A DNA stretch of 64,000 bases from a virus (lineage: Duplodnaviria > Caudoviricetes): the IMG/VR virus record IMGVR_UViG_3300032243_000867, positions 201,896-265,895 of that record; one strand, written 5' to 3'. Positions 13,037 to 64,000 of this stretch are shown here, piece by piece (position 1 is the stretch's first letter; each line of letters opens with the position of its first letter). The notes beneath the pieces are model-generated. The model did not search any database. It was not told the origin of the DNA and saw only the letters and a program-made list of their open reading frames with translations. A program made the translations under genes and the position numbers.

Positions 13037-13192
13037 ATGGCAGCGAAGGTTCAAGTGCTCGTCGGATTCGATGCAGACCAGATTGAATGGCTCAAGTCTG
13101 AGAGCCTTCGACGCCGCGTGCCCAGAGCTCAAGTTGTTCGCGAGCTAGTCCTCCGAGAAATGACTCCGCAACCGAAAACGCCCGTCGAATGA
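13037..13192 (+). CDS. Ribbon-helix-helix (CopG-like) protein
   Basis: Manual translation MAAKVQVLVGFDADQIEWLKSESLRRRVPRAQVVRELVLREMTPQPKTPVE; ATGA overlap with tnpB. Confidence 0.6.
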   Translation: MAAKVQVLVGFDADQIEWLKSESLRRRVPRAQVVRELVLREMTPQPKTPVE

Positions 13193-14427
13193 TCTTGCGG
13201 GCCTACAGGGTAGAGCTCGACCCAAACGACCGGCAACGGACGGCCTTTATCCGTCATGCCGGGTCCGTGAGGTTCGTCTACAACTGGGGCCTCGCTACTT
13301 TGATGCAGGACTACGCGGAGCGGAAAGCTGCCACCCCCGAAGGCGAAAAGGTGAAGGGTGGGTTGCGACCTCTCGATCTACAAGCCCGCCTTCCGGCGTT
13401 GAAGATCGAGCACCCGTGGCTCGCGGAAGTTACCGCACAGTCTCTCCAGATGTCTGTTCGCAACCTCGACCGTGCGTTCCGAGGCTTCTTTCGACGGGTG
13501 AAAGCGGGTCTCACTCCCGGATACCCCCGCTTCAAGAAGCGCGGGTTGACCAAGCCCGCGTTCCAATTTGCTCAGAAGGTCAAGGCTACGGGGACTCGCG
13601 TTTGTCTCCCGAAGATCGGACCCGTGCGGTTGAAGCAGCGGGGCTACATCCCCGCAGACCTCCCCCTCAAAACCGTCACCGTCAGGGAGGTTGTGGGGAG
13701 GTGGTTCGTAACGGTTCTGGTTGAGGTTCCAGACCCACCGAAGGTCGAAACGACCGGGGGGATCATTGGGATCGACCTCGGCGTCAAGACCCTCGCCACC
13801 CTATCGGACGGAACGGTCTACCCCAACCCGAAACACCTTGAACGGTCTCAAGATTCCCTAACGCGCCTTCAACGGAAGCTCTCCCGTCAGCAGAAAGGAT
13901 CGAACAGACGGGCCAAGACCAAGGTCCGCATTGCGAAGGCCCACGCACGGATCAGTAACCAACGGGTGGGTAGCCTCCACAAGATGACCAGCGAAGTCGT
14001 GAAAACCAAGCGACCTACGACTATCGTCATCGAGGACTTGAACGTCGCGGGAATGACCCGGAATCGTCGTCTAGCGAGGGCGGTGAGTTCCGCATCGTTC
14101 GCGGAGATTCGTCGTCAACTAACATACAAGTGTGACTGGCACGGGGTGAAACTCGTGGTAGCAGACCGCTTCTATCCGTCCAGCAAGACTTGCAACGGCT
14201 GCGGGGCGGTGAAGAGCGACATCACCTTGGGGGAGCGTACCTACGTCTGCGACCTTTGCGGGTATGTTCGAGACCGAGACGTGAACGCGGCTCTCAACCT
14301 ACGGGGTTGGGGAATGAATTTTCTGGCCGGGGGAACCCCGGCGACTGCTCGCGGAGGAAACGTAAGACCCGAAGCAATTCGGGCAGATTCCGTTGAAACG
14401 AGAACCGATCAGGGGACGGCCCCGTAA
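13189..14427 (+). CDS. tnpB: TnpB RNA-guided endonuclease
   Basis: N-terminal LRAYRVELDPNDRQ HTH; RuvC motifs IGIDLG, IVIEDL and DRDVNAALNL; zinc finger CNGC...CDLC. Confidence 0.93.
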   Translation: MILRAYRVELDPNDRQRTAFIRHAGSVRFVYNWGLATLMQDYAERKAATPEGEKVKGGLRPLDLQARLPALKIEHPWLAEVTAQSLQMSVRNLDRAFRGFFRRVKAGLTPGYPRFKKRGLTKPAFQFAQKVKATGTRVCLPKIGPVRLKQRGYIPADLPLKTVTVREVVGRWFVTVLVEVPDPPKVETTGGIIGIDLGVKTLATLSDGTVYPNPKHLERSQDSLTRLQRKLSRQQKGSNRRAKTKVRIAKAHARISNQRVGSLHKMTSEVVKTKRPTTIVIEDLNVAGMTRNRRLARAVSSASFAEIRRQLTYKCDWHGVKLVVADRFYPSSKTCNGCGAVKSDITLGERTYVCDLCGYVRDRDVNAALNLRGWGMNFLAGGTPATARGGNVRPEAIRADSVETRTDQGTAP

Positions 14428-14469: not shown

Positions 14470-15120
14470 ATGCGCTACGCCGACCGGGTCAACCGACCCC
14501 GCGAGGGACTCAAGATGGGCTTCGATTTCGGGCACGCCGATGGTGTGGTGTCCCTCAAGGGGACGTACATCATTCACCTCACGGACATCGCCACGGGTGA
14601 AGTTCTCGATCACCGAGAGAAGTCAAACATCGTCACGCTGGACGGCGGGATTCTGGTCGCGTTGCTTCTCGCCTCGGGTCCGACCCCGGTGCCTCCTTCG
14701 CAGCGCGGGCTCACCATGCTCGCCGTGGGCACGGGGGCGACGGGGCCGTTGCTGAACCCCGACGCGCCCGACCCCCGGCAACGGAAGCTCAACAGCGAGC
14801 TCTGGCGCAAGGTTTTCAGCGTTCGCCAGTTCCGCAACTCGACAGGCGGTGCCGTGAGCTATCCCACCAACGTGGTGGACTTCACGGCGACCTTCGGCGC
14901 GGGCGAGGCCGAAGGTCCCCTCAACGAGATGGGCCTGCTACGCACCCTCACCCTCGGGCCGACCCCCGGTACGCCGATTACCCCGGCCCCGGTGTTCCCG
15001 GCATATGACCCGACCGTGGATCTCACGAACTACGACATCCTCGCGAACTACACAACCTTCGGGGTATGCGTGAAACCCGCGAACAGCCTCCTCACCATCA
15101 CTTGGCGGCTTACGACGTGA
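14470..15120 (+). CDS. Tail collar/baseplate protein (DUF3751-like)
   Basis: SNIVTLDG...LAVGTG...LNSELWRK...VDFTATFGAGEAEGPLNEMGL pattern; start may be 14515. Confidence 0.65.
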   Translation: MRYADRVNRPREGLKMGFDFGHADGVVSLKGTYIIHLTDIATGEVLDHREKSNIVTLDGGILVALLLASGPTPVPPSQRGLTMLAVGTGATGPLLNPDAPDPRQRKLNSELWRKVFSVRQFRNSTGGAVSYPTNVVDFTATFGAGEAEGPLNEMGLLRTLTLGPTPGTPITPAPVFPAYDPTVDLTNYDILANYTTFGVCVKPANSLLTITWRLTT

Positions 15121-16451
15121 ACGAGAAGCTCTACGTCCTCGATACTTCCGTTCTCATCCACGACCCCGAAGCTCTGAGGTCGTTCCGCGGCACATCGGTC
15201 GCCATTCCGATCTTCGTGGTGATGGAGCTCGACGACCTCAAGGTGAGCACCCGTCACGAGGTGTCGAGTGCAGCCCGCACGGCTTCGCGGCGCATCGCCC
15301 GCATCGTTTCGCAGGGCGACGTGAACAACCCGAACGGGATCAACGATCTCAAGACCGGGAGCACGTTCTACGTCGTCGGTCAGGACGAGCACTTCGAGAG
15401 CCTCCAGAACACCACCTTGTCCCGCAAGATGGACCTGCTCATCCTCGGCAGCGCCCTGAAGCTACAGGAACGCTTTGCCAACAAAACGGTGGTGCTGGTT
15501 TCCAAGGACGTGAACCTTCGCATTCTCGCCGCCGCCAAGGGCGTCGGGGCGGAGGATTATCGCAAGGACCGGGTGGACCCGAACGAGGTTCCCTCGGGCG
15601 TTCATACCCAGGTGCTCACGGACCCCGATGCCCTTCAGCCCCTCTACGGGGCGGACCCGCCCGATACGGTGCCGTGCGTAGACCTAGACGCGGTGTCCCC
15701 CAACGAGTTCATTCGGTTCACCGGGCAAGGGTTCAGCCCCCAGTTGTTCCGATGGAACGGGACCGCCTTGCGCCCCGCTTCGCGCGGGAAGGGCATGAAG
15801 TTCGAGGCCCGCAACGACGGCCAGCGTATGGCGCTGGACCTATTGATGGACCCGAAGGTCCACCTCGTCGTGCTGAACGGCGCGGCGGGCTCGGGCAAAA
15901 CGCTGCTCAGCCTGATGGCGGGGCTGTACCAGTTGGAACGCCAATACGACAAGATCATCCTGTCGAAGCCCGTGGTGTCGATGGGCCGTGACCTCGGGTA
16001 TCTACCCGGCACCGAGAGCGACAAGATGCACCCGTGGATGTTGTCGTTCTACGACAACCTCGACCAGCTTCTCACCACCGATGCGAAGGAAAACAAGCGC
16101 AAGGGGGTCAAGGAGAAGAACTGGGAGCAACTGATGCAATCGGGGCAGGTGGAAATCCAGCCCATGCACAGCATCCGTGGGCGGTCTATCCCGCGCTCGT
16201 TCATGCTGTTCGACGAGATTCAGAACGCCACCCCCCACGAGGTGAAAACCGTGGTGAGCCGTGCGGCCACGGGGACGAAGGTAGTCCTGTGCGGTGACCC
16301 GTCGCAGATCGACGACCCGTTTCTGGATGCCTTCAGCAACGGGTTGGTACACGCCGCGAAGATGACTCGGGAATCACCCTTGGCCGGGTCGGTCTATCTC
16401 GGTGAGGGCGTCCGCAGCCCACTGGCAGAGCTCGCGGCCAAGTCCCTCTGA
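15117..16451 (+). CDS. phoH: PIN-domain PhoH family ATPase (PhoH2/YlaK-like)
   Basis: YVLDTSVLIHDP and LVSKDVNLRI (PIN); GAAGSGKT, GRDLGYLPG, IRGRSI, DEIQN and GDPSQID (PhoH); GTGA overlap. Confidence 0.92.
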   Translation: MNEKLYVLDTSVLIHDPEALRSFRGTSVAIPIFVVMELDDLKVSTRHEVSSAARTASRRIARIVSQGDVNNPNGINDLKTGSTFYVVGQDEHFESLQNTTLSRKMDLLILGSALKLQERFANKTVVLVSKDVNLRILAAAKGVGAEDYRKDRVDPNEVPSGVHTQVLTDPDALQPLYGADPPDTVPCVDLDAVSPNEFIRFTGQGFSPQLFRWNGTALRPASRGKGMKFEARNDGQRMALDLLMDPKVHLVVLNGAAGSGKTLLSLMAGLYQLERQYDKIILSKPVVSMGRDLGYLPGTESDKMHPWMLSFYDNLDQLLTTDAKENKRKGVKEKNWEQLMQSGQVEIQPMHSIRGRSIPRSFMLFDEIQNATPHEVKTVVSRAATGTKVVLCGDPSQIDDPFLDAFSNGLVHAAKMTRESPLAGSVYLGEGVRSPLAELAAKSL

Positions 16452-49960: not shown

Positions 49961-50347
49961 TCACATTTCTGTAGGCCCATGCAGGAACCACGGGGTGAGG
50001 GCCGGGACGTACTCGACCTTGGGGTGTGGGGGCTCCGAGCCCGTGCGCTTCTTGACTTTGGCGAGCACGTCTTCAAGGGACCGCCCGACGTGGACGAAAT
50101 CGTCCAAGGGCCACACGAGGTGGTCGCCGTAGTGCCAAGCGGTGCCCGCGCGCACGGGGACCATCACCTTCTTCGCCCCCGGTTGGCACTCCGCGAGGTT
50201 CCACGGAGACACCTGTCCCATGCGCTTTCCCCCGCCGGGTTCGGCCCATGCGGGGCAGTAGGGGCACGTCCAGAAATCTGTGTTCTTGTAGAGCTTTTCA
50301 CAGGGAGTGCCACACAACGGGCACGTCCAGAAATGATCGCAGTTCAT
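49961..50347 (-). CDS. Zinc-finger protein
   Basis: Duplicated FWTCPxC motifs. Confidence 0.6.
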   Translation of the reverse strand: MNCDHFWTCPLCGTPCEKLYKNTDFWTCPYCPAWAEPGGGKRMGQVSPWNLAECQPGAKKVMVPVRAGTAWHYGDHLVWPLDDFVHVGRSLEDVLAKVKKRTGSEPPHPKVEYVPALTPWFLHGPTEM

Positions 50348-50562
50348 AGGCCAACTTTCGACGGGTCACGGGGTTCCCTTCCCCGAAGGGCGCACCGAAA
50401 CCCGGCATCGTCGAGACGGCACGCAGGCCCGTACGTGTCGCGAGACGCGGCGCGCACCCTCGACGGTACGTTGCTGTACCAACCGCCGCCGCGTTGGACG
50501 CGAAGGCGGGTGTCGGTCGGGTTTGTTTCGTAGGGAGCGGGGGTCTTTCGTGATCTTGCCAT
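50344..50562 (-). CDS. Stand-alone DGR-type variable-region mini-protein C15
   Basis: MARSRKTPAPYETNPTDTRLRVQRGGGWYSNVPSRVRAASRDTYGPACRLDDAGFRCALRGREPRDPSKVGL; GGGCGTAA 7 nt upstream. Confidence 0.8.
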   Translation of the reverse strand: MARSRKTPAPYETNPTDTRLRVQRGGGWYSNVPSRVRAASRDTYGPACRLDDAGFRCALRGREPRDPSKVGL

Positions 50563-50569
50563 ACCCCCG

Positions 50570-50577
50570 TTACGCCC
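50570..50577 (-). promoter_or_regulatory. GGGCGTAA motif
   Basis: 7 nt upstream of ATG 50562. Confidence 0.55.
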
Positions 50578-50611
50578 TACAGGTCTTCGGGGTCTTCCAA
50601 CATCGCCCCCG

Positions 50612-51055
50612 TCAGAACGTCGCACGTCGCACGTTGGCGAAGGGTAGATTCGTGAGGTCGGCCTCTACGCGGGGAGAGTACTCGGTGGAACCGCAGAAGG
50701 GGCAGGGCTCGCCCGTGTCATGGGCGACATGGTGACACTGCGCGCAGAAGTGCTCCGTGATGCACCCCTCGTCGTCGCACGCATAACACCGCTGTCCCAC
50801 CGTGTGGATGTACGTCCGGGTGGCGATAGCGCCGCACTCGCCGCACTTGGGGAGGTGCTGGCGCAGCAAGGAATCCATCGCCTCGACACGGCGTACCAAC
50901 TCCCGTGCGATCTCCAAGATCTCCGGTCCCGAGGAGTCCACGGGCGCACCGAGGGCTTCACCGATGGCGATGATCTCGTCCAAGTGACGGGCGTCGTCCC
51001 GCAGGGCTTGTTCCAGCAGTTCTTCTTGGGGGGAGTGAATCCGTCGCGGGGTCAC
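50612..51055 (-). CDS. Cys-rich zinc-finger protein
   Basis: CGEC, CYAC, CAQC, CPFC motifs. Confidence 0.65.
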   Translation of the reverse strand: MTPRRIHSPQEELLEQALRDDARHLDEIIAIGEALGAPVDSSGPEILEIARELVRRVEAMDSLLRQHLPKCGECGAIATRTYIHTVGQRCYACDDEGCITEHFCAQCHHVAHDTGEPCPFCGSTEYSPRVEADLTNLPFANVRRATF

Positions 51056-51405
51056 GGTTCACCCCGCTTGGCCCGCAGCTTGGCGCAGTGATCTTCCCAC
51101 ACCCTCGCGGACTCTTCGTCTGACAGGGGCTCTACTTCCACGGTCACCTTCACCCGCATCACCGGGAGGGCCTTGCGGGCGGTGAGTTCGCGGTACTCGT
51201 CCCTCAAGTCCTTGAAGTAGCCGTCCTCGTCCACCTCGTCCTCAAACGCCATAGGGGCCGACGCACGGACGGTTGAACCCCCTGCGTCGAGGACGAAGGC
51301 GCTGATGCCCTTCATCACGGTCTCGTCGGTCCCGAGCCCGTAGATGTAGTTCTCCTCGTAGTCGGCCACGCACAGGGCGTGGCCCTCAAACTTGCTCGTG
51401 CCCAT
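51052..51405 (-). CDS. Hypothetical acidic protein
   Basis: Start reassigned to ATG 51405 (TGATG overlap). Confidence 0.6.
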   Translation of the reverse strand: MGTSKFEGHALCVADYEENYIYGLGTDETVMKGISAFVLDAGGSTVRASAPMAFEDEVDEDGYFKDLRDEYRELTARKALPVMRVKVTVEVEPLSDEESARVWEDHCAKLRAKRGEP

Positions 51406-51944
51406 CACTTCGCACGATACACAGAGAGCCCGTCGTGAATCCCCGACCACTGAGGAAGGCAGACGCACTGCTCCTCGCTCCAGTGCTCGTCGAGGATGCG
51501 ATGGAACTCGTCGTCGGCGGTGCAGCCCCCGGAGCCCTCACCGACGTACACGAGGGTGCTCCCGCCCGCCTCCATGAAGCGAAGGAGGCACTCCGTGCCC
51601 ATCGGCGTGGCATACGGGGGCCACACCAACATGAGCGCGTGGTCCTTGTGCGCGCGGGTGATTACGTCGCACGTCCCCTCCGACACGGGGTGCCAGAGCT
51701 TGCCCGTGGCCCCATCAGAATGGTCTCCCGGTTCGCGGTCGTAGCACTCGACGGTGCCGCCCGCTTCGGCAATGAGGCTGGCCCAGTAGCCGTTCCCGGC
51801 CCCAAGCTCGATGACGGGTTTGCAGAGTCCGACGATGGTCGCGATGGCACGGTCGTCGGGGATCGCCCATGCGTACTCGGCCACGAGGGCGGCACGGGCA
51901 CTCCACCCTCGCTCCCGTTGGGCGCGGAGTTCGTAGGCGTTCAT
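51405..51944 (-). CDS. Class I SAM-dependent methyltransferase-like protein
   Basis: YAWAIPD...VIELGAGNGYWASL...LMLVWPP...LVYVGEGSGGCTA. Confidence 0.8.
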   Translation of the reverse strand: MNAYELRAQRERGWSARAALVAEYAWAIPDDRAIATIVGLCKPVIELGAGNGYWASLIAEAGGTVECYDREPGDHSDGATGKLWHPVSEGTCDVITRAHKDHALMLVWPPYATPMGTECLLRFMEAGGSTLVYVGEGSGGCTADDEFHRILDEHWSEEQCVCLPQWSGIHDGLSVYRAK

Positions 51945-52138
51945 GCACGCACCGCGTGACCTTTGCAGGGCTCGTTTGCCGCCGCTTGCCCCGGTTCTGT
52001 TGACAGGTAGTACAGGGTGTAGTGAGCCCCGCACTTCTCACAGCAGATACGGGTCGGGAGGCTGGACCCGCCGTGGAGCTCCAGCCCCGGCTTCACCCTC
52101 CAGACGTGCGCCCCGTCGTCGATTTTGGACTCACTCAC
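51941..52138 (-). CDS. Small hypothetical protein sharing its first codons with cassette C13
   Basis: VSESKIDDG...CCEKCG; GTGA overlap with C14. Confidence 0.55.
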   Translation of the reverse strand: MSESKIDDGAHVWRVKPGLELHGGSSLPTRICCEKCGAHYTLYYLSTEPGQAAANEPCKGHAVRA

Positions 52139-52326
52139 GGTTTTACTTTCCTCTCACATCCCACACGCGCGCACCGAAACCCCAGGTTGTCGAACCGGTA
52201 CGTCGGACCGTCCCCGCGACGGTCCGCGACGCGCACCCTCGACGGATAGCTGACGCCCCAGCTACCGCCGTGGCTGAGGCGGTGAAGGGTGTCGGAGGTG
52301 GGTTGCTTGGTGGTGGGGGGGTTCAT
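52135..52326 (-). CDS. DGR-type variable-region mini-protein C14
   Basis: MNPPTTKQPTSDTLHRLSHGGSWGVSYPSRVRVADRRGDGPTYRFDNLGFRCARVGCERKVKP. Confidence 0.8.
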   Translation of the reverse strand: MNPPTTKQPTSDTLHRLSHGGSWGVSYPSRVRVADRRGDGPTYRFDNLGFRCARVGCERKVKP

Positions 52327-52334
52327 ACGGGTAC

Positions 52335-52342
52335 TTACGCCC
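52335..52342 (-). promoter_or_regulatory. GGGCGTAA motif
   Basis: 8 nt upstream of the C14 ATG; its TAA is the C13 stop. Confidence 0.5.
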
Positions 52343-52505
52343 GGGGTTCCCTTCCCCGCAGCGCGCACCGAAAACCGAGGCTGCTGTCCCGGAGCGTCGG
52401 CCCGATCCTGTTACGGAACGCGACGCGCACCCTCGACGGATCGCGGTCGTCCCAGCCACCGCCGCGGAAGACGCGGAGGCGGGTGTCGGTCTTGGACTCA
52501 CTCAC
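52335..52505 (-). CDS. DGR-type variable-region mini-protein C13
   Basis: VSESKTDTRLRVFRGGGWDDRDPSRVRVAFRNRIGPTLRDSSLGFRCALRGREPRA; GTGA overlap. Confidence 0.8.
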   Translation of the reverse strand: MSESKTDTRLRVFRGGGWDDRDPSRVRVAFRNRIGPTLRDSSLGFRCALRGREPRA

Positions 52506-52933
52506 GGCTTCACCACGGGCCACGGCACGAGGTTGCCGTCCCAATCAATCGACCGCCAGTACCACACATGGAGTCGGGGGTTCTTTCGCTGGTAGGCGGC
52601 GTACTTCTTGGCCGTCTCGCCGCCCATCACCCGGCAACACGGGCCACCAGAGCGGTGGTCGAAGCTGACCAAGAAGTCCCCTCCGTTGTCGTCGTGCGCG
52701 TCCACCTCCTCGTCGGTGGGGGGCACCGTGCGGTAGTCCTTCGCAGTGAGGGTGGCCTCTCGCAGCACCGTGCGGGCATCGAGCACCTCGATGCCCAAGA
52801 GCTTCCCGTCCGCGTCGTAGTCGATCACGAACGGGCCGTGGGTGTCCCGTCGCACGGACTCACTGGGACGGGTGCCGTCCGGGTTGACGTGCAGGTAGGC
52901 GGCGTTGGCTTCGGCGTCGTATGTGAGTCTCAT
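52502..52933 (-). CDS. DUF2283-like domain protein
   Basis: MRLTYDAEANAAYL...FVIDYDADGKLLGIEVLDA. Confidence 0.75.
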   Translation of the reverse strand: MRLTYDAEANAAYLHVNPDGTRPSESVRRDTHGPFVIDYDADGKLLGIEVLDARTVLREATLTAKDYRTVPPTDEEVDAHDDNGGDFLVSFDHRSGGPCCRVMGGETAKKYAAYQRKNPRLHVWYWRSIDWDGNLVPWPVVKP

Positions 52934-52957
52934 GGCTCTTTTAGAAGATACCGCGGG

Positions 52958-53119
52958 TCATCGCGGCATCTTTCCCGGTAGGTGCGTGCGAAAGCCCAGC
53001 GCACTGTTACATCCCGAGGGCACGCGCGAATGGCGAGCAGACGCGAGCACCCACGACGGATCGTCGTAGAGCCAAGGGCTACTGCGGAAGACGCGAAAGG
53101 CTTTGACCGACGGCTTCAC
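52958..53119 (-). CDS. DGR-type variable-region mini-protein C12 (GFRTHL subfamily; not in the ORF track)
   Basis: Manual translation VKPSVKAFRVFRSSPWLYDDPSWVLASARHSRVPSGCNSALGFRTHLPGKMPR; GTGA overlap. Confidence 0.72.
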   Translation of the reverse strand: MKPSVKAFRVFRSSPWLYDDPSWVLASARHSRVPSGCNSALGFRTHLPGKMPR

Positions 53120-53625
53120 GGCTTCGCCCACGCCTCCGCGAGCACCTCCGCAGGGGCCACGTCACCGTGTCGGGTGGCGAGGTCCGTGGCCCACTCCATC
53201 ACCAGACGCGGGTAATCCCGTGCCTCGGTCCCGTAGGGGACCAGCACCGCCGGGATCACCCCCATCGGGTCGCCGCCGCACTCGCGCGCCGTGGGGTGAT
53301 CGTAGGTATCGAACGCGGTGCGGGACGGGTCACCGGGCCACGGGATCTCCCCGGTCTTCGTCCACCCCCGCGCCACCAGCACCCGCCGCATCGCGTCGGG
53401 CGAGGTGGCCTTGAGGGAGTCCTTGTCGAGACCCGCGAGGGCACGAACCGCACGGAGCAACTGCCCCTGCCCCGCCGCCTCGTGACGGTAGAGGGCAGCT
53501 TGGGCGCGGTGTACCGTGGCTTCACAGTAACGGAGGTCACGGGGTGTCAGCTTCCCTTGGGCAAACAGTTCCGTGCCTTCCGCGAGGTCTTCGAGGGCTT
53601 GGGCGAGGGGGAGCTTCGGGTCCAT
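53116..53625 (-). CDS. Hypothetical protein
   Basis: 169-aa ORF, GGGCGTAA 8 nt upstream. Confidence 0.7.
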   Translation of the reverse strand: MDPKLPLAQALEDLAEGTELFAQGKLTPRDLRYCEATVHRAQAALYRHEAAGQGQLLRAVRALAGLDKDSLKATSPDAMRRVLVARGWTKTGEIPWPGDPSRTAFDTYDHPTARECGGDPMGVIPAVLVPYGTEARDYPRLVMEWATDLATRHGDVAPAEVLAEAWAKP

Positions 53626-59183: not shown

Positions 59184-59447
59184 TTATAGCAGCGGCAGGT
59201 GAAGCCCTACCCACGACCCTAGGGACCCGCCCACCATCAGCCCGATCCATTGGGAGCGCCGCCCGTCTTCGACAAGGCGTTTGATGATTGAGACGTTCAG
59301 CGCCGTACTCAGTACGTCCGTGATCAGCGCGAAGCGGAAGTGTCCTACTGCGGTGGAGCGGACATTCAAGTACCACAGCAGGTGGTAGACGAATTGGGCG
59401 ACCGCGACCGCTAGCGGGGAGGACATAGCCTTGTCCGTGGGGTTCAC
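59184..59447 (-). CDS. Small membrane protein sharing its start with cassette C11
   Basis: VNPTDKAMSS... with hydrophobic helices; GTGA overlap with C11. Confidence 0.6.
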   Translation of the reverse strand: MNPTDKAMSSPLAVAVAQFVYHLLWYLNVRSTAVGHFRFALITDVLSTALNVSIIKRLVEDGRRSQWIGLMVGGSLGSWVGLHLPLL

Positions 59448-59617
59448 GTTCGGGGTTCCCTACCCCGAAGGACGCACCGAAACCCGAGGTTGTTGTCCTG
59501 GTACGCAGGCTCGTCCGCGTTGCGAATGGCCGCGCGCACCCTCGACGGTCCATAGTTGTGCCAACAGCCGCCGCCGCGGAAGACGCGGTCGGAGGTGGTG
59601 GTGTCCGTGGGGTTCAC
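59444..59617 (-). CDS. DGR-type VR mini-protein C11
   Basis: VNPTDTTTSDRVFRGGGCWHNYGPSRVRAAIRNADEPAYQDNNLGFRCVLRGREPRT. Confidence 0.82.
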   Translation of the reverse strand: MNPTDTTTSDRVFRGGGCWHNYGPSRVRAAIRNADEPAYQDNNLGFRCVLRGREPRT

Positions 59618-59784
59618 GTTCGGGGTTCCCTTCCCCGCAGCGCGCACCGAAACCCGATGTTGTTGATACGGTCCGCAGGCACGTACGTGAAGCGAGACGC
59701 GGCGCGCACCCACGACGGTACGTAGTTGCCCCAACTGCCGCCGCGGTAGACGCGGGTGTCGGAGGGCTTGGTAGGAGGGTTCAT
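59614..59784 (-). CDS. DGR-type VR mini-protein C10
   Basis: MNPPTKPSDTRVYRGGSWGNYVPSWVRAASRFTYVPADRINNIGFRCALRGREPRT. Confidence 0.85.
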   Translation of the reverse strand: MNPPTKPSDTRVYRGGSWGNYVPSWVRAASRFTYVPADRINNIGFRCALRGREPRT

Positions 59785-59933
59785 ACTCGGGGTTGCCTTA
59801 CTGACAGGTGGGTTCGGAACCCGACGTATTTGTCTCGGGTCTCGGAAGAAATATCCGAGACCTCGTCCGCCGCGCGCACGTAGAGGGGGCGCTCGATGAC
59901 CCAACTTCCTCCGCGTACCATGCGGCGTTTCAT
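59781..59933 (-). CDS. DGR-type VR mini-protein C9 (GFRTHL subfamily; not in the ORF track)
   Basis: Manual translation MKRRMVRGGSWVIERPLYVRAADEVSDISSETRDKYVGFRTHLSVRQPRV. Confidence 0.78.
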   Translation of the reverse strand: MKRRMVRGGSWVIERPLYVRAADEVSDISSETRDKYVGFRTHLSVRQPRV

Positions 59934-60076
59934 CGCGGGCACCGGCACCGGGCTCGGAGGCGGAAGCCCACGGTGGTGTTGCGGTAGACAGGTTCCTTTC
60001 GCACGCGCGCGGGGACGGCGCGGGGGTCGTTGCCGAAGCTGTAGCTCCGCAGGGTGAGAGTCCCCGGTGGGTTCAT
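59930..60076 (-). CDS. Diverged VR mini-protein C8
   Basis: MNPPGTLTLRSYSFGNDPRAVPARVRKEPVYRNTTVGFRLRARCRCPR. Confidence 0.65.
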   Translation of the reverse strand: MNPPGTLTLRSYSFGNDPRAVPARVRKEPVYRNTTVGFRLRARCRCPR

Positions 60077-60225
60077 CGCGGTGCCCTCATCGTCAGGTGC
60101 GTACGGAATCCCAGTAGGCGTCCATATCGCTCCGGTCCGTAGATGTGGGCCACGGTGCTGGTCCCCAGCCATTTCGGGTCATCGCTACGAAGGCATCCCC
60201 CACGGGTGACGTTCTGGTTGTTCAC
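60073..60225 (-). CDS. VR mini-protein C7 (GFRTHL subfamily)
   Basis: VNNQNVTRGGCLRSDDPKWLGTSTVAHIYGPERYGRLLGFRTHLTMRAPR. Confidence 0.72.
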   Translation of the reverse strand: MNNQNVTRGGCLRSDDPKWLGTSTVAHIYGPERYGRLLGFRTHLTMRAPR

Positions 60226-60455
60226 GGGTCGCTCCGATTGGTGTCGGTCCAGTGTTCGAGGTCGGTGGTGTCGAGGATGTCCGTGCAAACGTCAGCGGGC
60301 GGGGTCACCTCTCGGTGTTCCCCGCCCGCCGTGATCGTGTCCGCCCACGCGAAGGACGCTCCCGCGTCCGGGTCGTAGCCGTGCCCTACCCGGACGGTGA
60401 CCACTTCGGGGTTCGCCCGGAGGTAGTCCCGTGCCCAGTCACTCGCCCGCGTCAT
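60222..60455 (-). CDS. Hypothetical protein (77 aa)
   Basis: MTRASDWARDYLRANPEVV...; coupled to C7 by GTGA. Confidence 0.6.
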   Translation of the reverse strand: MTRASDWARDYLRANPEVVTVRVGHGYDPDAGASFAWADTITAGGEHREVTPPADVCTDILDTTDLEHWTDTNRSDP

Positions 60456-60723
60456 GGGAAGGGTTACGCTGCTTGAGGTAGGCGCGGAGGATGTTCGCGG
60501 CGCTATTCGCCGCGTCATCGCAGTAGCCCACGAACTCCTGCGCGTCTTCGCCGTTCTCCACCACGCCGTCGAGGGCGGCGAGGGCCTGACCCGCAATTTT
60601 GCGGGCGGCGAGGGCGTGGAACCCCGTGCTCGCCGGGTCACTTCGGTGAAGCGAATCGAGGAGGACCGAGCACTGGAGGCTGAAGCTGACGGTGTTGACC
60701 GCGTACTGGATCTCGTTGTTCAT
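60439..60723 (-). CDS. Hypothetical helical protein
   Basis: 94-aa ORF with GAAGGG RBS. Confidence 0.65.
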   Translation of the reverse strand: MNNEIQYAVNTVSFSLQCSVLLDSLHRSDPASTGFHALAARKIAGQALAALDGVVENGEDAQEFVGYCDDAANSAANILRAYLKQRNPSHDAGE

Positions 60724-60753
60724 GGTGTGTCCCTTCGTGTGTGTGCGTTGCGT

Positions 60754-60972
60754 TCAGACGGTGCGGGTGTACCAGTTGCCGCCCTTGAGGACGACGCGGC
60801 GCGGTTGCCAGCCTTTGCTGGTCTGCACTTCGAGGCGCGAACCCGTGGGGGCGAACTGCACGGTGCGGGCGAAGCGGGCGGGCACCCGCCGCGCCCCCTT
60901 GTGGGAGCCCGTGTGGATTTCGCACTGGGCGAGGTGGGTGCCATCGGGGGAGATGAGCTTCAACGTGTTCAT
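60754..60972 (-). CDS. Hypothetical basic protein
   Basis: 72-aa ORF with AGGA RBS. Confidence 0.6.
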   Translation of the reverse strand: MNTLKLISPDGTHLAQCEIHTGSHKGARRVPARFARTVQFAPTGSRLEVQTSKGWQPRRVVLKGGNWYTRTV

Positions 60973-60984
60973 GGTGTGTGTTTC

Positions 60985-61167
60985 CTAGTGTGTGCGGGGT
61001 TGCCTCGCCCGAAGGGCGCACCGAAACCCCAGGTTGTCGTCACGGCACGCAGGCACGTCCGCGCCGCGAGACGCGGCGCGCACCCTCGACGGTACGTTGC
61101 TGTACCAACAGCCTTCGCGTTGGACGCGAAGGCGGGTGTCGGAGGTGGGTTTGGTGGTGGGCTTCAC
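60985..61167 (-). CDS. DGR-type VR mini-protein C6
   Basis: VKPTTKPTSDTRLRVQREGCWYSNVPSRVRAASRGADVPACRDDNLGFRCALRARQPRTH. Confidence 0.85.
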   Translation of the reverse strand: MKPTTKPTSDTRLRVQREGCWYSNVPSRVRAASRGADVPACRDDNLGFRCALRARQPRTH

Positions 61168-61343
61168 GTTCGGGGTTCCCTTCCCCGCAGCGCGCACCGA
61201 AACCCGATGTTGTTGCACCGGTTCGCAGGCACGTACGTGAAGCGAGACGCGGCGCGCACCCACGACGGTCCGTTGAAGTACCCACCGCCGCCGCGGTAGA
61301 CGCGGGGGCGGGTGTCGGAGGTGGGTTTGGTGGTGGGCTTCAC
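61164..61343 (-). CDS. DGR-type VR mini-protein C5
   Basis: VKPTTKPTSDTRPRVYRGGGGYFNGPSWVRAASRFTYVPANRCNNIGFRCALRGREPRT. Confidence 0.85.
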   Translation of the reverse strand: MKPTTKPTSDTRPRVYRGGGGYFNGPSWVRAASRFTYVPANRCNNIGFRCALRGREPRT

Positions 61344-61516
61344 GTTCGGGGTTCCCTTCCCCGCAGCGCGCACCGAAACCCCAGGTCGCCGTACCGGTTC
61401 GCAGGCCCGTTCGTGTTGCGAGACGCCGCGCGCACCCACGACGGAGCATTGTTGTGCCAACTGCCGCCGCGGTCGACGCGGAGGCGGGTGTCGGAGGGCT
61501 TGGTAGGGGGCTTCAC
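61340..61516 (-). CDS. DGR-type VR mini-protein C4
   Basis: VKPPTKPSDTRLRVDRGGSWHNNAPSWVRAASRNTNGPANRYGDLGFRCALRGREPRT. Confidence 0.85.
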   Translation of the reverse strand: MKPPTKPSDTRLRVDRGGSWHNNAPSWVRAASRNTNGPANRYGDLGFRCALRGREPRT

Positions 61517-61686
61517 GTTCGGGGTTCCCTTCCCCGCAGCGCGCACCGAAACCCCAGGTCGCCGTACCGGTTCGCAGGCCCGTTCGTGTTGCGAGACGCC
61601 GCGCGCACCCACGACGGTGCATAGTTCCAACAGCCGCCGCGGCCGACGCGGAGACGGGTGTCGGAGGGCTTGGTAGGGGGGTTCAT
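61513..61686 (-). CDS. DGR-type VR mini-protein C3
   Basis: MNPPTKPSDTRLRVGRGGCWNYAPSWVRAASRNTNGPANRYGDLGFRCALRGREPRT. Confidence 0.85.
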   Translation of the reverse strand: MNPPTKPSDTRLRVGRGGCWNYAPSWVRAASRNTNGPANRYGDLGFRCALRGREPRT

Positions 61687-61865
61687 ACTCGGGGTTCCCT
61701 TCCCCGCAGCGCGCACCGAAACCCCAGGTGGAGGAGCCGGAGCGCAGGCACGCCCGAGTTGCGAGACGCCGCGCGCACCCACGACGGTGCATAGTTCCAA
61801 CAGCCGCCGCGGACGACGCGGAGACGGGTGTCGGTCTTGGGTTGCTTGGTGGTGGGGGGGTTCAT
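61683..61865 (-). CDS. DGR-type VR mini-protein C2
   Basis: MNPPTTKQPKTDTRLRVVRGGCWNYAPSWVRAASRNSGVPALRLLHLGFRCALRGREPRV. Confidence 0.85.
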   Translation of the reverse strand: MNPPTTKQPKTDTRLRVVRGGCWNYAPSWVRAASRNSGVPALRLLHLGFRCALRGREPRV

Positions 61866-62038
61866 ACTCGGGGTTCCCTTACTGACAGGTGGGTGCGAAA
61901 ACTCATGTCGGTTTCGCGCCACTCGGGCTCGTACGAGCCCCGGTCGGCGGGCCGCATGAACGGGGCGTAGGAGAGTCCCCAACCTCCTCCCACCAGTACG
62001 CGGGGGAGGTTGGGGTCCGGGGGCTGTGCCCGTCTCAT
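61862..62038 (-). CDS. VR mini-protein C1 (FRTHL subfamily), coupled to the FGE scaffold
   Basis: MRRAQPPDPNLPRVLVGGGWGLSYAPFMRPADRGSYEPEWRETDMSFRTHLSVREPRV; its ATG overlaps the scaffold TGA. Confidence 0.78.
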   Translation of the reverse strand: MRRAQPPDPNLPRVLVGGGWGLSYAPFMRPADRGSYEPEWRETDMSFRTHLSVREPRV

Positions 62039-62868
62039 TTGTGGACGGTGCTGGTCCACTCCCAGACGTTGCCGCTCATGTCGAGCAGCCCGTAGGGGGA
62101 GGCACCCTTCGGGCGGGCGGGGGTGCCGTCCGGGTTGACGCACGGGGCCGTGCGTTCCTTCTGGGTGCGGATGGACGACCAGCACAGGTCGTCCGTCGGG
62201 GCCTCGTTGCCCCACGGAAACTTCCGACCGTCCCAACCGCGTGCGGCGTGCTCCCATTCCTCCTCGGTGGGGAGGCCGACACCGGCCCACTTCGCGAACT
62301 CACAGGCGTCCCAGTAGGAGACTTCCACCACCGGGTGGTCGATGAGGTCCACCGTCGCGCCCGACTGGTCCGTGGCGGTCGTGGGCTTCAGGTCTTTCCC
62401 GCACGCCGTGGCGTACCAGTTCCACTGGCGCACGGTGGTGGGGGTCTGCGCCATGAACCCACCGGGGACTCTCACCTTCCGGCGCGTTTGAGACTCGTCG
62501 TCCCCCATCTCGAACGCCGTGGCCGGGGGGACGTAGCACATGGGCAGGGTGTTGCCGTCGGGGAGGACGTGATGCACCACCCACGGGGTTCCGCCCAGCT
62601 CCGCGAGCGTGGGCCAGATCTCGCGGACCTCGCCGTCGTCGTCCTCCAGGCGGGGGACGCACCCGTAGGTGCGGTGGACGCGAAACGTCCAGACCTCCTT
62701 GGAGGTGAGCACCCGCACGCCCGTGATTCCCGCCGGGAGGTTCCCGGCGATTTGGCGGATCACCGACATCACCTCGTCGAGGTGATCGCCGGAGGGCAAT
62801 CGGAAGTCGGGCTCGATGTCGAGCCATTGGCCGAGACATGATTCGATGAAGCACCCTTGGATTTCCAT
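62035..62868 (-). CDS. FGE-sulfatase/C-type-lectin-fold protein lacking its C-terminal variable region
   Basis: FEMG, QTPTTVRQW, HPVVEVSYWDACEFAKWAG, LPTEEEWEHAARG, FPWGN, SPYGLLDMSGNVWEW, then a stop after TSTVHK; GGAGA RBS before ATG 62868. Confidence 0.9.
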   Translation of the reverse strand: MEIQGCFIESCLGQWLDIEPDFRLPSGDHLDEVMSVIRQIAGNLPAGITGVRVLTSKEVWTFRVHRTYGCVPRLEDDDGEVREIWPTLAELGGTPWVVHHVLPDGNTLPMCYVPPATAFEMGDDESQTRRKVRVPGGFMAQTPTTVRQWNWYATACGKDLKPTTATDQSGATVDLIDHPVVEVSYWDACEFAKWAGVGLPTEEEWEHAARGWDGRKFPWGNEAPTDDLCWSSIRTQKERTAPCVNPDGTPARPKGASPYGLLDMSGNVWEWTSTVHK

Positions 62869-62900: not shown

Positions 62901-63056
62901 TCACGGGCGGGGGGCGGGGGTTTCGGCGGGTGGGGCGGGGGCGTTCTGCGCTTCGAGCGCAGCCGCGATGCGCTCCAGGGCGCGGGCGATACGGGGGAGG
63001 GTCCCCTCGTAGTAGACGCGACCCATCATCGTCTGCCAGAACCCGGGGCCGCTCAC
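62901..63056 (-). CDS. Small hypothetical protein
   Basis: VSGPGFWQTMMGRVYYEGTLPRIARALERIAAALE; GTGA overlap. Confidence 0.6.
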   Translation of the reverse strand: MSGPGFWQTMMGRVYYEGTLPRIARALERIAAALEAQNAPAPPAETPAPRP

Positions 63057-63469: not shown

Positions 63470-63618
63470 CGGTCCTCCTTACGTTTGCGGTTGGTGGGCG
63501 GCGGGGCGGCGGGCTGGCGGCGACGTTCGAGCCAGCCGTCCACCAGCCCCATGAGGGCTAGTGCCGCCGCGCAGTAGGCGGAGATGCCCGCCAACTCGGT
63601 GTCGGTGATCACGGTCAT
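63466..63618 (-). CDS. Small single-TM protein
   Basis: MTVITDTELAGISAYCAAALALMGLVDGW...; GGGAGG RBS. Confidence 0.55.
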   Translation of the reverse strand: MTVITDTELAGISAYCAAALALMGLVDGWLERRRQPAAPPPTNRKRKEDR

Positions 63619-63671
63619 CCTCCCCTTCGCCCCCCTAACCGGACGGGAGGGGGGTCTATTAGTGGGAATCG

Positions 63672-63750
63672 TTAGCGCCCCGACGCGGAATCGAACCGCG
63701 CACACCCGCCCCCGGTTCAGCCGGGGGCGCGCGCCTCCTCGACCGTCGCC
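63672..63750 (-). ncRNA. tRNA-like element (degenerate)
   Basis: Perfect T-arm CGCGG-TTCGATT-CCGCG (63684-63700) preceded by an 8-bp hairpin GCCCCCGG-CTGAA-CCGGGGGC; no canonical D-arm or acceptor stem found. Confidence 0.25.
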
Positions 63751-63817
63751 TCGCCTCGCGCCCAACTGCGCGCCGGGATTGGAGGGGATGCCCGCCAAGT
63801 TGCTTGGCGGGACGCTG

Positions 63818-64000
63818 TCACTCGACGAGCGCAGCCTCGACTACCTCCCACGGCACCGCGCAACGCACGGCGGCGGCGTCGGCGGCGGAGTCGTCGGCGT
63901 AGTAGGCGGCGCGGGCGGCGGCGCGGGCGTAGACGGCGGCGGCGTCGGCGGCGTCGGCGGCGTCGTAGTAGGCGGCGCGGGCGGCGGCGTGGGAGGCGGC
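63818..64000 (-). CDS. Ala-rich low-complexity protein, 5'-partial
   Basis: Manual translation ...AASHAAARAAYYDAADAADAAAVYARAAARAAYYADDSAADAAAVRCAVPWEVVEAALVE-stop. Confidence 0.65.
   Translation of the reverse strand, partial: AASHAAARAAYYDAADAADAAAVYARAAARAAYYADDSAADAAAVRCAVPWEVVEAALVE

Follow-up and report, generated by a model that had tools for sequence, protein, structure and literature searches.

Variable repeats in tandem mini-genes of a 266-kb tailed phage match the template of a bacterial diversity-generating retroelement

Diversity-generating retroelements (DGRs) are regarded as self-contained: the reverse transcriptase (RT), Avd, the template repeat (TR) and one or a few nearby targets lie in one genome. 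Here we describe a locus at which DGR-type variable repeats (VRs) and their putative donor appear to be divided between a phage and a bacterium. The locus lies in a stretch of 64,000 nucleotides (hereafter the window) that forms the final 64 kb of the 265,895-bp IMG/VR virus record IMGVR_UViG_3300032243_000867 (G000). It consists of one truncated gene of the FGE-sulfatase/C-type-lectin (CLec) fold, which we call the body, and of tandem arrays of short open reading frames (ORFs), which we call tails or cassettes, that encode the C-terminal lobe of this fold and many of which carry a VR.

The VR/TR logic of DGRs, targets of the CLec/FGE fold and targets acted on in trans within a genome are already known. 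Cellular 'clade 5' DGRs diversify CLec/FGE sensor domains of putative conflict systems in multicellular bacteria (Dore et al. 2024, PMC10907252; Kaur et al. 2020, PMC7159879), and for cellular DGRs of this type the diversification of targets in trans within one genome has been reported (PMC10907252). The operon that matches our locus is, like those of clade 5, a bAvd-RT-TR operon, and its targets end in a VR of the FGE type to which caspase, TIR or kinase domains are fused. Unlike in clade 5, the acceptor VRs are found in a phage that has no RT, Avd or TR, and they form tandem arrays of independent ~57-aa mini-genes rather than the C-termini of large sensor proteins. Phage BPP-1, with the VR of its tail-fibre protein Mtd (Guo et al. 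2011, PMC3240598), shares with our phage a VR of the CLec fold at the 3' end of an ORF, a GC-rich element after it, an inverted repeat, which in our phage is a predicted hairpin, and adenine-specific changes; BPP-1, however, has its own avd-TR-brt beside a single VR in a full-length protein, whereas here there are ~28 tails, no donor and a split CLec/FGE domain. Multi-target DGRs (Wu et al. 2018, PMC5758913) likewise serve many VRs from one template and have duplicated VR genes, but our locus is unusual in the number of VRs (13 hypervariable ones in 266 kb), their minimal size, their stop-start coupling and the lack of an RT. Tandem partial copies near one 'expression' copy, mosaics and copy-number variation between strains also recall silent-cassette systems such as Neisseria pilS and Borrelia vls. 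In contrast to those systems, every phage cassette has an ATG or GTG start of its own, so that the cassettes look expressed rather than silent, and their diversity, which carries the DGR signature, is more than a fixed archive. In a limited literature search we found no report of a cellular DGR template that matches VRs in a virus, and no description of arrays of VRs in a complete phage without the retroelement, of a split target domain or of minimal, translationally coupled VR genes.

We examined the codon signature in 14 cassettes of the phage record and in a set of 59 distinct cassettes drawn from the phage together with its relatives. At ten codon columns, the first and second positions carry three or four bases each and the third position is C. 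Codons ending in C make up 566 of the 588 observed at these columns; 426 would be expected if these amino acids were encoded with the codon usage of the phage itself. Lys, Glu, Met, Trp and Pro are almost absent there, and the repertoire is that of NNC codons. Variation at a single position is seen in codons of the forms NGT, GNA, NGG, NCG and GNG. Framework codons (CCG TCG, GTG CGC, GGG TTT CGG TGC) are nearly invariant, including their third positions, and the same is true of codons that are rare in the phage genome (TTT, CCT, CGT and TCT). A preliminary description of the window, made from a subset of these cassettes, had read this pattern as the mark of adenine-specific mutagenesis; the pattern holds in the 14 cassettes of the genome and in the 59 that include relatives, and the exceptions then listed are present as well: CAA (Gln) in three related cassettes, GAA in cassette H5 and GGG in cassette H4 (Table 1).

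We searched for the template by scanning species-representative bacterial genomes with the framework bases only. The scan matched two contigs (L132 and L133) of one metagenome-assembled genome (MAG), 'uncultured delta proteobacterium KT_bin-2017', an 8.1-Mb, Myxococcota-like assembly from freshwater. Contig L133 encodes an RVT_1 reverse transcriptase (53 bits), and directly past the RT stop codon lies an adenine-rich copy of the cassette core, the TR (L133:1163-1276); the same contig has a convergent full-length FGE gene with a VR as its 3' end. Contig L132 encodes a caspase-FGE protein with another VR (L132:4284-6068, minus strand). One VR of the MAG differs from the TR at 16 of 26 adenine sites and 2 of 85 other sites, the other VR at 14 and 0, respectively; therefore, the MAG element is a canonical DGR. 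The MAG also has a bAvd-like ORF, and bAvd lies directly upstream of RTs that are 97% and 81% identical to that of the MAG. A second, partly assembled TR was seen in the MAG beside a bAvd-like gene (G004:C145).

Since the TR was found independently of the cassettes, a test for enrichment of variation at its adenines is not circular. Across the 59 cassettes, mismatches to the TR occupy 850 of 1530 cells (55.6%) at the 26 adenine positions of the TR and 318 of 5190 cells (6.1%) at the 88 other positions (Mann-Whitney p = 2.2e-14). At TR adenines, A is replaced by T in 386 cells, by G in 349 and by C in 115. Hence, a cognate TR exists for the phage VRs and the differences between VR and TR concentrate at its adenines, as is expected of DGR acceptors and as the preliminary description had proposed. 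That description had also reconstructed a 111-nt template, absent from the window, and suggested that it be sought in the full genome, host bins and metagenome, next to an RT. The TR of the MAG, immediately downstream of its RVT_1 RT, agrees with the reconstruction at 110 of 111 bases. The remaining base differs: at the codon for the third residue of PS[R/W]V, AGG was predicted and the MAG TR has TGG. More distant DGRs of the same RT family carry AGG at this codon, and the phage-associated template may differ from the MAG TR at this one base. TR-specific patterns with AGG at this codon gave no viral match, and their two metagenome matches were chance matches in unrelated genes.

Two further features of the cassettes emerged from these comparisons. 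At the ten codons derived from AAC, the change of A to C is about 15 times rarer at the second position (5/588) than at the first (76/588), and Thr, Pro, Ala and TCC-encoded Ser are almost absent; this scarcity could reflect a context bias of the RT or selection. In addition, there is a subgroup of cassettes with VSESKTD leaders and the ending GFRCAR(G/V)G(S/C)ERKVKP (window 52135-52544; G000:71090-71571; L026:9378-11247). Its framework differs from that of the other cassettes, with GTC for GCC and CCG ACG for CCT GCG, and the subgroup may reflect a second template. Framework polymorphisms among cassettes also include GCC/GCG, CGT/CGG and TTT/TTC.

The match is specific to one branch of bacterial DGRs. 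RTs from other samples that are 97% identical to the MAG RT are followed by the same TR start, and the TRs of RTs that are ~72% identical are only ~77% identical in DNA. Among 151 genomes of the MAG's order, this TR occurs in KT_bin-2017 alone, the next best match being 82% identical. The phage cassettes are 86-91% identical to the TR and VRs of the MAG (91% over 116 nt for cassette G4 and the TR), while the phage body is only 69-75% identical to the FGE genes of the MAG. In all 59 cassettes the similarity between phage and bacterium is confined to the TR-homologous segment and stops at its borders. We conclude from the TR and RT comparisons that the phage cassettes match one particular bacterial DGR lineage. 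Relatives of the RT are found in bAvd-RT operons in Polyangiales, Polyangiaceae and Sandaracinaceae MAGs, some of them on contigs of 360-605 kb, with TIR/kinase-FGE or caspase-FGE proteins as targets (including those on L139 and L140). The lineage that matches the phage diversifies an architecture that has been proposed for hypervariable immune sensors.

No donor is apparent in the phage. A framework-pattern scan of viral contigs matched three related IMG/VR records only, which total 328 kb. In the 265,895-bp record and these three records (G000-G003), we found no match to PF00078/RVT_1 or to the MAG RT, and none to the bAvd family PF22296. Cassette BLAST of the whole record returned coding cassettes only, none of them adenine-rich, and no TR was found in any of the four records. 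An RT motif scan of the FGE-bearing viral loci L027-L102 found no RT. The earlier observation that neither RT nor Avd is visible in the window therefore extends to the whole record and to its three relatives: the RT that matches these VRs sits in a bacterial MAG. The identity of the record as a tailed phage is indicated by PHROG matches (baseplate wedge, PhoH and transposase). It is labelled 59% complete by CheckV and linear by IMG/VR. In three relatives (L103, L124 and L126), DNA homologous to position ~303 adjoins DNA homologous to position ~265,626, and the two ends of the record (G000:1-420 and window 63500-64000) share a diverged element of ~100 nt within a CGG/Ala-Asp-Tyr repeat gene. 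Because the record ends abut in these relatives, we take the phage genome to be essentially complete at ~266 kb, the assembly apparently having broken within the repeat-rich gene. An essentially complete genome with neither RT nor bAvd nor TR would place the donor outside the phage. Of the locations first suggested for a remote donor (elsewhere in the phage, in the host, or lost), the first is now unlikely; that the donor is remote is borne out by the matching TR and RT in a bacterial MAG.

The arrays span positions 59444-62038 of the window (minus strand), with mini-ORFs of 48-60 aa at periods of ~170 and ~176 nt. We verified the coordinates of every mini-ORF by translation (Table 1). The complete PF03781 domain (FGE-sulfatase/CLec fold; ~1-255) is not found in one polypeptide. 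Instead, the mini-ORFs match only profile positions 204-254, which is the C-terminal lobe, and the part of the domain that precedes it lies in the separate body gene. The body is 277 aa long from its ATG, with the longest frame opening at a GTG at 62904; its C-terminus ends in GNVWEWTSTVHK, and its TGA overlaps the ATG of tail H0. Relatives with body proteins of 57-98% identity retain the division into body and tail, the two being joined by an overlapping ATGA or GTGA. With a hidden Markov model (HMM) of the tails, we found ~28 tails in eight clusters across the whole record but one body only. About half of these tails are hypervariable.

Table 1. Features of the window (positions in the 64,000-nt window; subunits of each array follow the array)
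Feature	Position	Strand	Comment
Truncated FGE-sulfatase/CLec body gene	62035..62868	-	PF03781, 111 bits, profile positions 12-193 of 255
Tail H0, conserved 'GFRT-type', 58 aa	61862..62038	-	first after body; tail HMM 78 bits
Array H, five hypervariable 'GFRC-type' VR mini-ORFs	60985..61865	-	tandem repeat period 176, 4.8 copies; PF03781 204-254
H1	61683-61865	-	hypervariable GFRC tail
H2	61513-61686	-	hypervariable GFRC tail
H3	61340-61516	-	hypervariable GFRC tail
H4	61164-61343	-	hypervariable GFRC tail
H5	60985-61167	-	hypervariable GFRC tail
Anchor block of three small non-cassette genes (72, 94 and 77 aa)	60222..60972	-	between the arrays; conserved
Array G, conserved part ('GFRT/GFRL-type')	59781..60225	-	
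G1	60073-60225	-	
G2	59930-60076	-	
G3	59781-59933	-	
Array G, hypervariable VR mini-ORFs	59444..59784	-	tandem repeat period 170
G4	59614-59784	-	
G5	59444-59617	-	
Further stand-alone tails, same family	50344..53161	-	stops at 50344, 52135, 52335 and 52958; tail HMM 80-88 bits; counted in the codon tables
Reading frame of 3560 aa	37384-48066	-	
PhoH-like gene	15066-16451		beside the transposase
Insertion-sequence (IS)-type transposase	13189-14427	+	phrog_506, 382 bits; inside the phage genome

The tails fall into two classes: conserved 'GFRT' tails (H0 and G1-G3), which are nearly identical between strains, and hypervariable 'GFRC' tails (H1-H5, G4 and G5). Orthologues of H0 are nearly identical in L024, L025, L103, L117, L124 and L126; G1-G3 are nearly identical in strains whose flanks are 96-97.5% identical, and have recognisable orthologues in the more distant L105 and L129. 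Some cassettes in L126, L128, L129, L130 and L131 have a core that is hypervariable and TR-like but finish like the conserved class ('GFRT HLPVRQPRV'), indicating that the two classes recombine at the GFR codons. We found no Pfam family above threshold for the three small genes between the arrays, and we rejected these ORFs as candidates for Avd, for which Pfam gives no support. The 94-aa protein (60439-60723, minus strand) is the same letter for letter in 35 blocks of the public collection, where the adjoining arrays differ in number and content; this makes it a handy anchor for strain-resolved work.

Judged from its sequence, the cassette unit consists of a short Pro/Thr-rich leader, ~38 TR-homologous codons and a GC-rich 3' end that also holds the ribosome-binding site and overlapping start of the next unit. 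The VR is thus at the 3' end of an ORF of the CLec/FGE fold, ending 9-10 codons before the stop, although this ORF is the tail alone. After the shared sequence GGTGCGCGC, the phage VRs read (T)GCGGGG, as do the VRs of the MAG, where the TR reads GCGAGG. The GC-rich element is followed directly by a predicted hairpin (5-bp GC stem, 7-nt loop), and the bases of this element and of the stem also encode RGREPR and the ribosome-binding site of the next ORF. With its VR-type element and predicted hairpin, the 3' end of the phage cassette is a candidate for an element like the initiation of mutagenic homing (IMH) site. In the BPP-1 system, IMH and hairpin are needed to accept complementary DNA, and in laboratory experiments a plasmid-borne avd-brt-TR donor homes into an IMH- and hairpin-bearing VR of a phage without a donor of its own (PMC3240598).

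Several features suggest that the tails are expressed. Each opens at an ATG or GTG that overlaps the preceding stop, and across all related arrays collected the spacing of units is 2 mod 3 in 77 of 77 distinct cases, a strict -1 frame progression, with ATGA or GTGA at 72 of the 77 unit junctions. Overlapping starts and frame progression would make sense only if the mini-ORFs are translated, and the cassettes accordingly look expressed. We considered a programmed -1 frameshift that joins body and tail, and rejected it because the slippery site is not conserved: the body/H0 junction reads CAC AAA TGA here and CAC AAG TGA in L117, the start codon being conserved instead. Structure prediction of body plus tail gave a complex with an ipSAE of 0.87 in three runs and ~215 contacts, the best control scoring 0.01; among solved complexes 51 of 78 attain this mark, and among mismatched pairs 2 of 108. 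By this prediction, the two FGE pieces can form one fold. The score supports likeness to the intact fold and is not proof of binding, and we regard complementation of the body by the tails as somewhat more likely than not.

We then asked how the cassettes have evolved relative to the rest of the phage. Synonymous identity of framework codons is 0.84-0.90 (~0.86), within the genome and between distant phages alike, whereas in the body gene it drops from 0.96 down to 0.54 across these comparisons. Some pairs of cassettes, including pairs from distant phages, differ at 0 of 88 non-A sites and at 46-62% of A sites. These two observations, together with the restriction of bacterial similarity to the TR segment, argue that, since the phage lineages diverged, the cassettes have been kept in register with the template. 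Hypervariable cassettes differ in number and version between strains with 96-97.5% identity in the flanking block. An orthologous G-array cassette in the window and in L128 (97.5%-identical strains) differs at 12 of 26 A sites and 2 of 88 non-A sites, a difference to which recombination may have contributed. Three sets of comparisons were discarded. L104 and L105, and L117 and L118/L119, proved in each case to be one strain that had been re-assembled or re-sampled; they showed no differences apart from those in a 12-nt repeat of shifting register and were rejected as evidence of VR stability; an apparent extra cassette in L121 relative to L120, considered as a recent duplication, falls in an N run of L120; and the fourth cassette of L121 and L122, which differs in leader and variable codons, lies at a contig end, may be a collapse of paralogues and was not used. 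The 12-nt repeats (AVxG-type) form a run in a DUF6745 protein of a related phage (L117:13320-14462, minus strand), the register of which differs between otherwise identical assemblies, giving 52 'mismatches' within 200 nt.

We favour, with moderate confidence, the view that the cassettes are orphan DGR VRs, templated in trans by a cellular and probably host DGR, reshuffled by recombination and translated as tails that complete the body. Its parts differ in strength. That the cassettes were written by a DGR with a template outside the phage is very likely; that they were written on the phage in trans, and that this is still happening, is a tentative proposal on which we could well be wrong. A number of observations weigh against the full view. 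Non-A positions are not fully uniform, ~6% differing from the TR and ~10% between cassettes, and a few changes, such as those to CAA, GAA and GGG, do not derive from adenines. Between the window and L128, the leaders and junctions that flank the TR-homologous part differ at 13 of 96 positions, compared with ~3% in the flanks, and many cassettes are mosaics in which stretches of 'variable' codons are shared, as in H2/H3 and H5/G000:41755. Some of the differences between strains are therefore due to recombination. The same cassette can turn up unchanged in several samples: P0016 was seen in 7 contigs, and L125 has the arrays of the window, so cassettes are stable on some time scale. For variation within populations, the data were Logan assembler contigs, which break inside the repeats. 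The predicted complex may simply reproduce the intact FGE fold. The link between phage and host is circumstantial: phage and MAG RT both occur in freshwater/lake runs, with one study shared, and GC content is 64% for the phage compared with 70-71% for the MAG loci L132 and L133. Lastly, the MAG is in 1849 contigs, and the contig with RT and TR is only 2.5 kb long. Mosaicism, copy-number variation, identical cassettes in different samples, non-A changes and altered 3' ends in some cassettes, and a complete phage genome without RT, bAvd or TR are also what one would expect if the cassettes were relics, diversified in a bacterium or in an ancestral DGR element, acquired by the phage and now subject only to duplication, crossing-over and gene conversion. 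We consider this less likely than the reading above, since relics should drift at synonymous framework sites, which keep the same identity at any distance while the body diverges. Moreover, capture would leave ragged ends, and bacterial likeness is instead confined to the TR-homologous segment in 59 of 59 cassettes, with ~70% identity in the body. A relic would also need repeated capture or strong gene conversion across co-infecting phages.

The labels of the record, together with the tendency of contigs to break at TR/VR repeats, would also allow the phage to have an RT, Avd and TR of its own in an unassembled part of its genome. The junction of the record ends in three independent relatives, the lack of RT and bAvd in the record and in the 328 kb of related records, and the bacterial setting of the matching RT lineage, in which bAvd-RT lies beside kinase, TIR and caspase-FGE genes in Polyangiales-type MAGs on contigs of up to 605 kb, make this very improbable. 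In tandem gene families, positive selection can drive binding loops far apart at non-synonymous sites, and an ordinary paralogue family under diversifying selection could in that way vary without any retroelement. Such a family would not be expected to have its third positions fixed at C with an NNC repertoire, to vary along the adenines of an independently found TR (p = 2e-14), or to be free of drift at synonymous framework sites, and we give this explanation hardly any credence.

If the cassettes are indeed orphan VRs templated in trans, they would have been written by mutagenic retrohoming from the cellular DGR lineage. In the simplest setting, the phage would replicate in a cell that expresses bAvd-RT-TR, and phage DNA would be the target of the host element in trans. 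The cassettes would then be reshuffled by tandem duplication, by unequal crossing-over and by gene conversion, leaving strains that differ in cassette number and mosaic content. The mini-proteins would be translated by stop-start coupling and would dock non-covalently onto the single truncated FGE body, so that one body, completed by ~28 interchangeable tips, could offer many binding specificities without an RT in the virion genome. It is possible, although less likely than not, that the phage keeps a large repertoire of acceptor VRs and uses the host DGR during infection to rewrite them (cell-to-phage retrohoming). As this host DGR diversifies caspase/TIR/kinase-linked FGE domains for which a role as antigen sensors has been proposed, the mini-proteins or their assemblies with the body could also mimic host sensor tips. 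Counter-defence by such mimicry is as conceivable as receptor binding.

Elsewhere in the window, Table 1 includes a transposase, a PhoH-like gene and a single open frame of 3560 aa. The large ORFs beside this frame (1880, 1211 and 1078 aa) have no PHROG match.

Our findings suggest that a DGR acceptor can be uncoupled from its donor across two genomes, here a complete 266-kb phage and a bacterium. They also suggest that a target domain can be split, such that one scaffold gene could have dozens of alternative variable tips to complete it, each encoded on its own. The donor that matches comes from a cellular DGR lineage that is thought to diversify immune-like sensors of multicellular bacteria. 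Sequences are available for the donor (bAvd-RT-TR) as well as for the recipients (cassettes with their 3' elements), and the proposed transfer is directly testable. If it is true, a template match would be a host-assignment marker for uncultured phages. If a host element does write into phage DNA, hypermutation machinery would be a shared resource, or a battleground, of virus and host.

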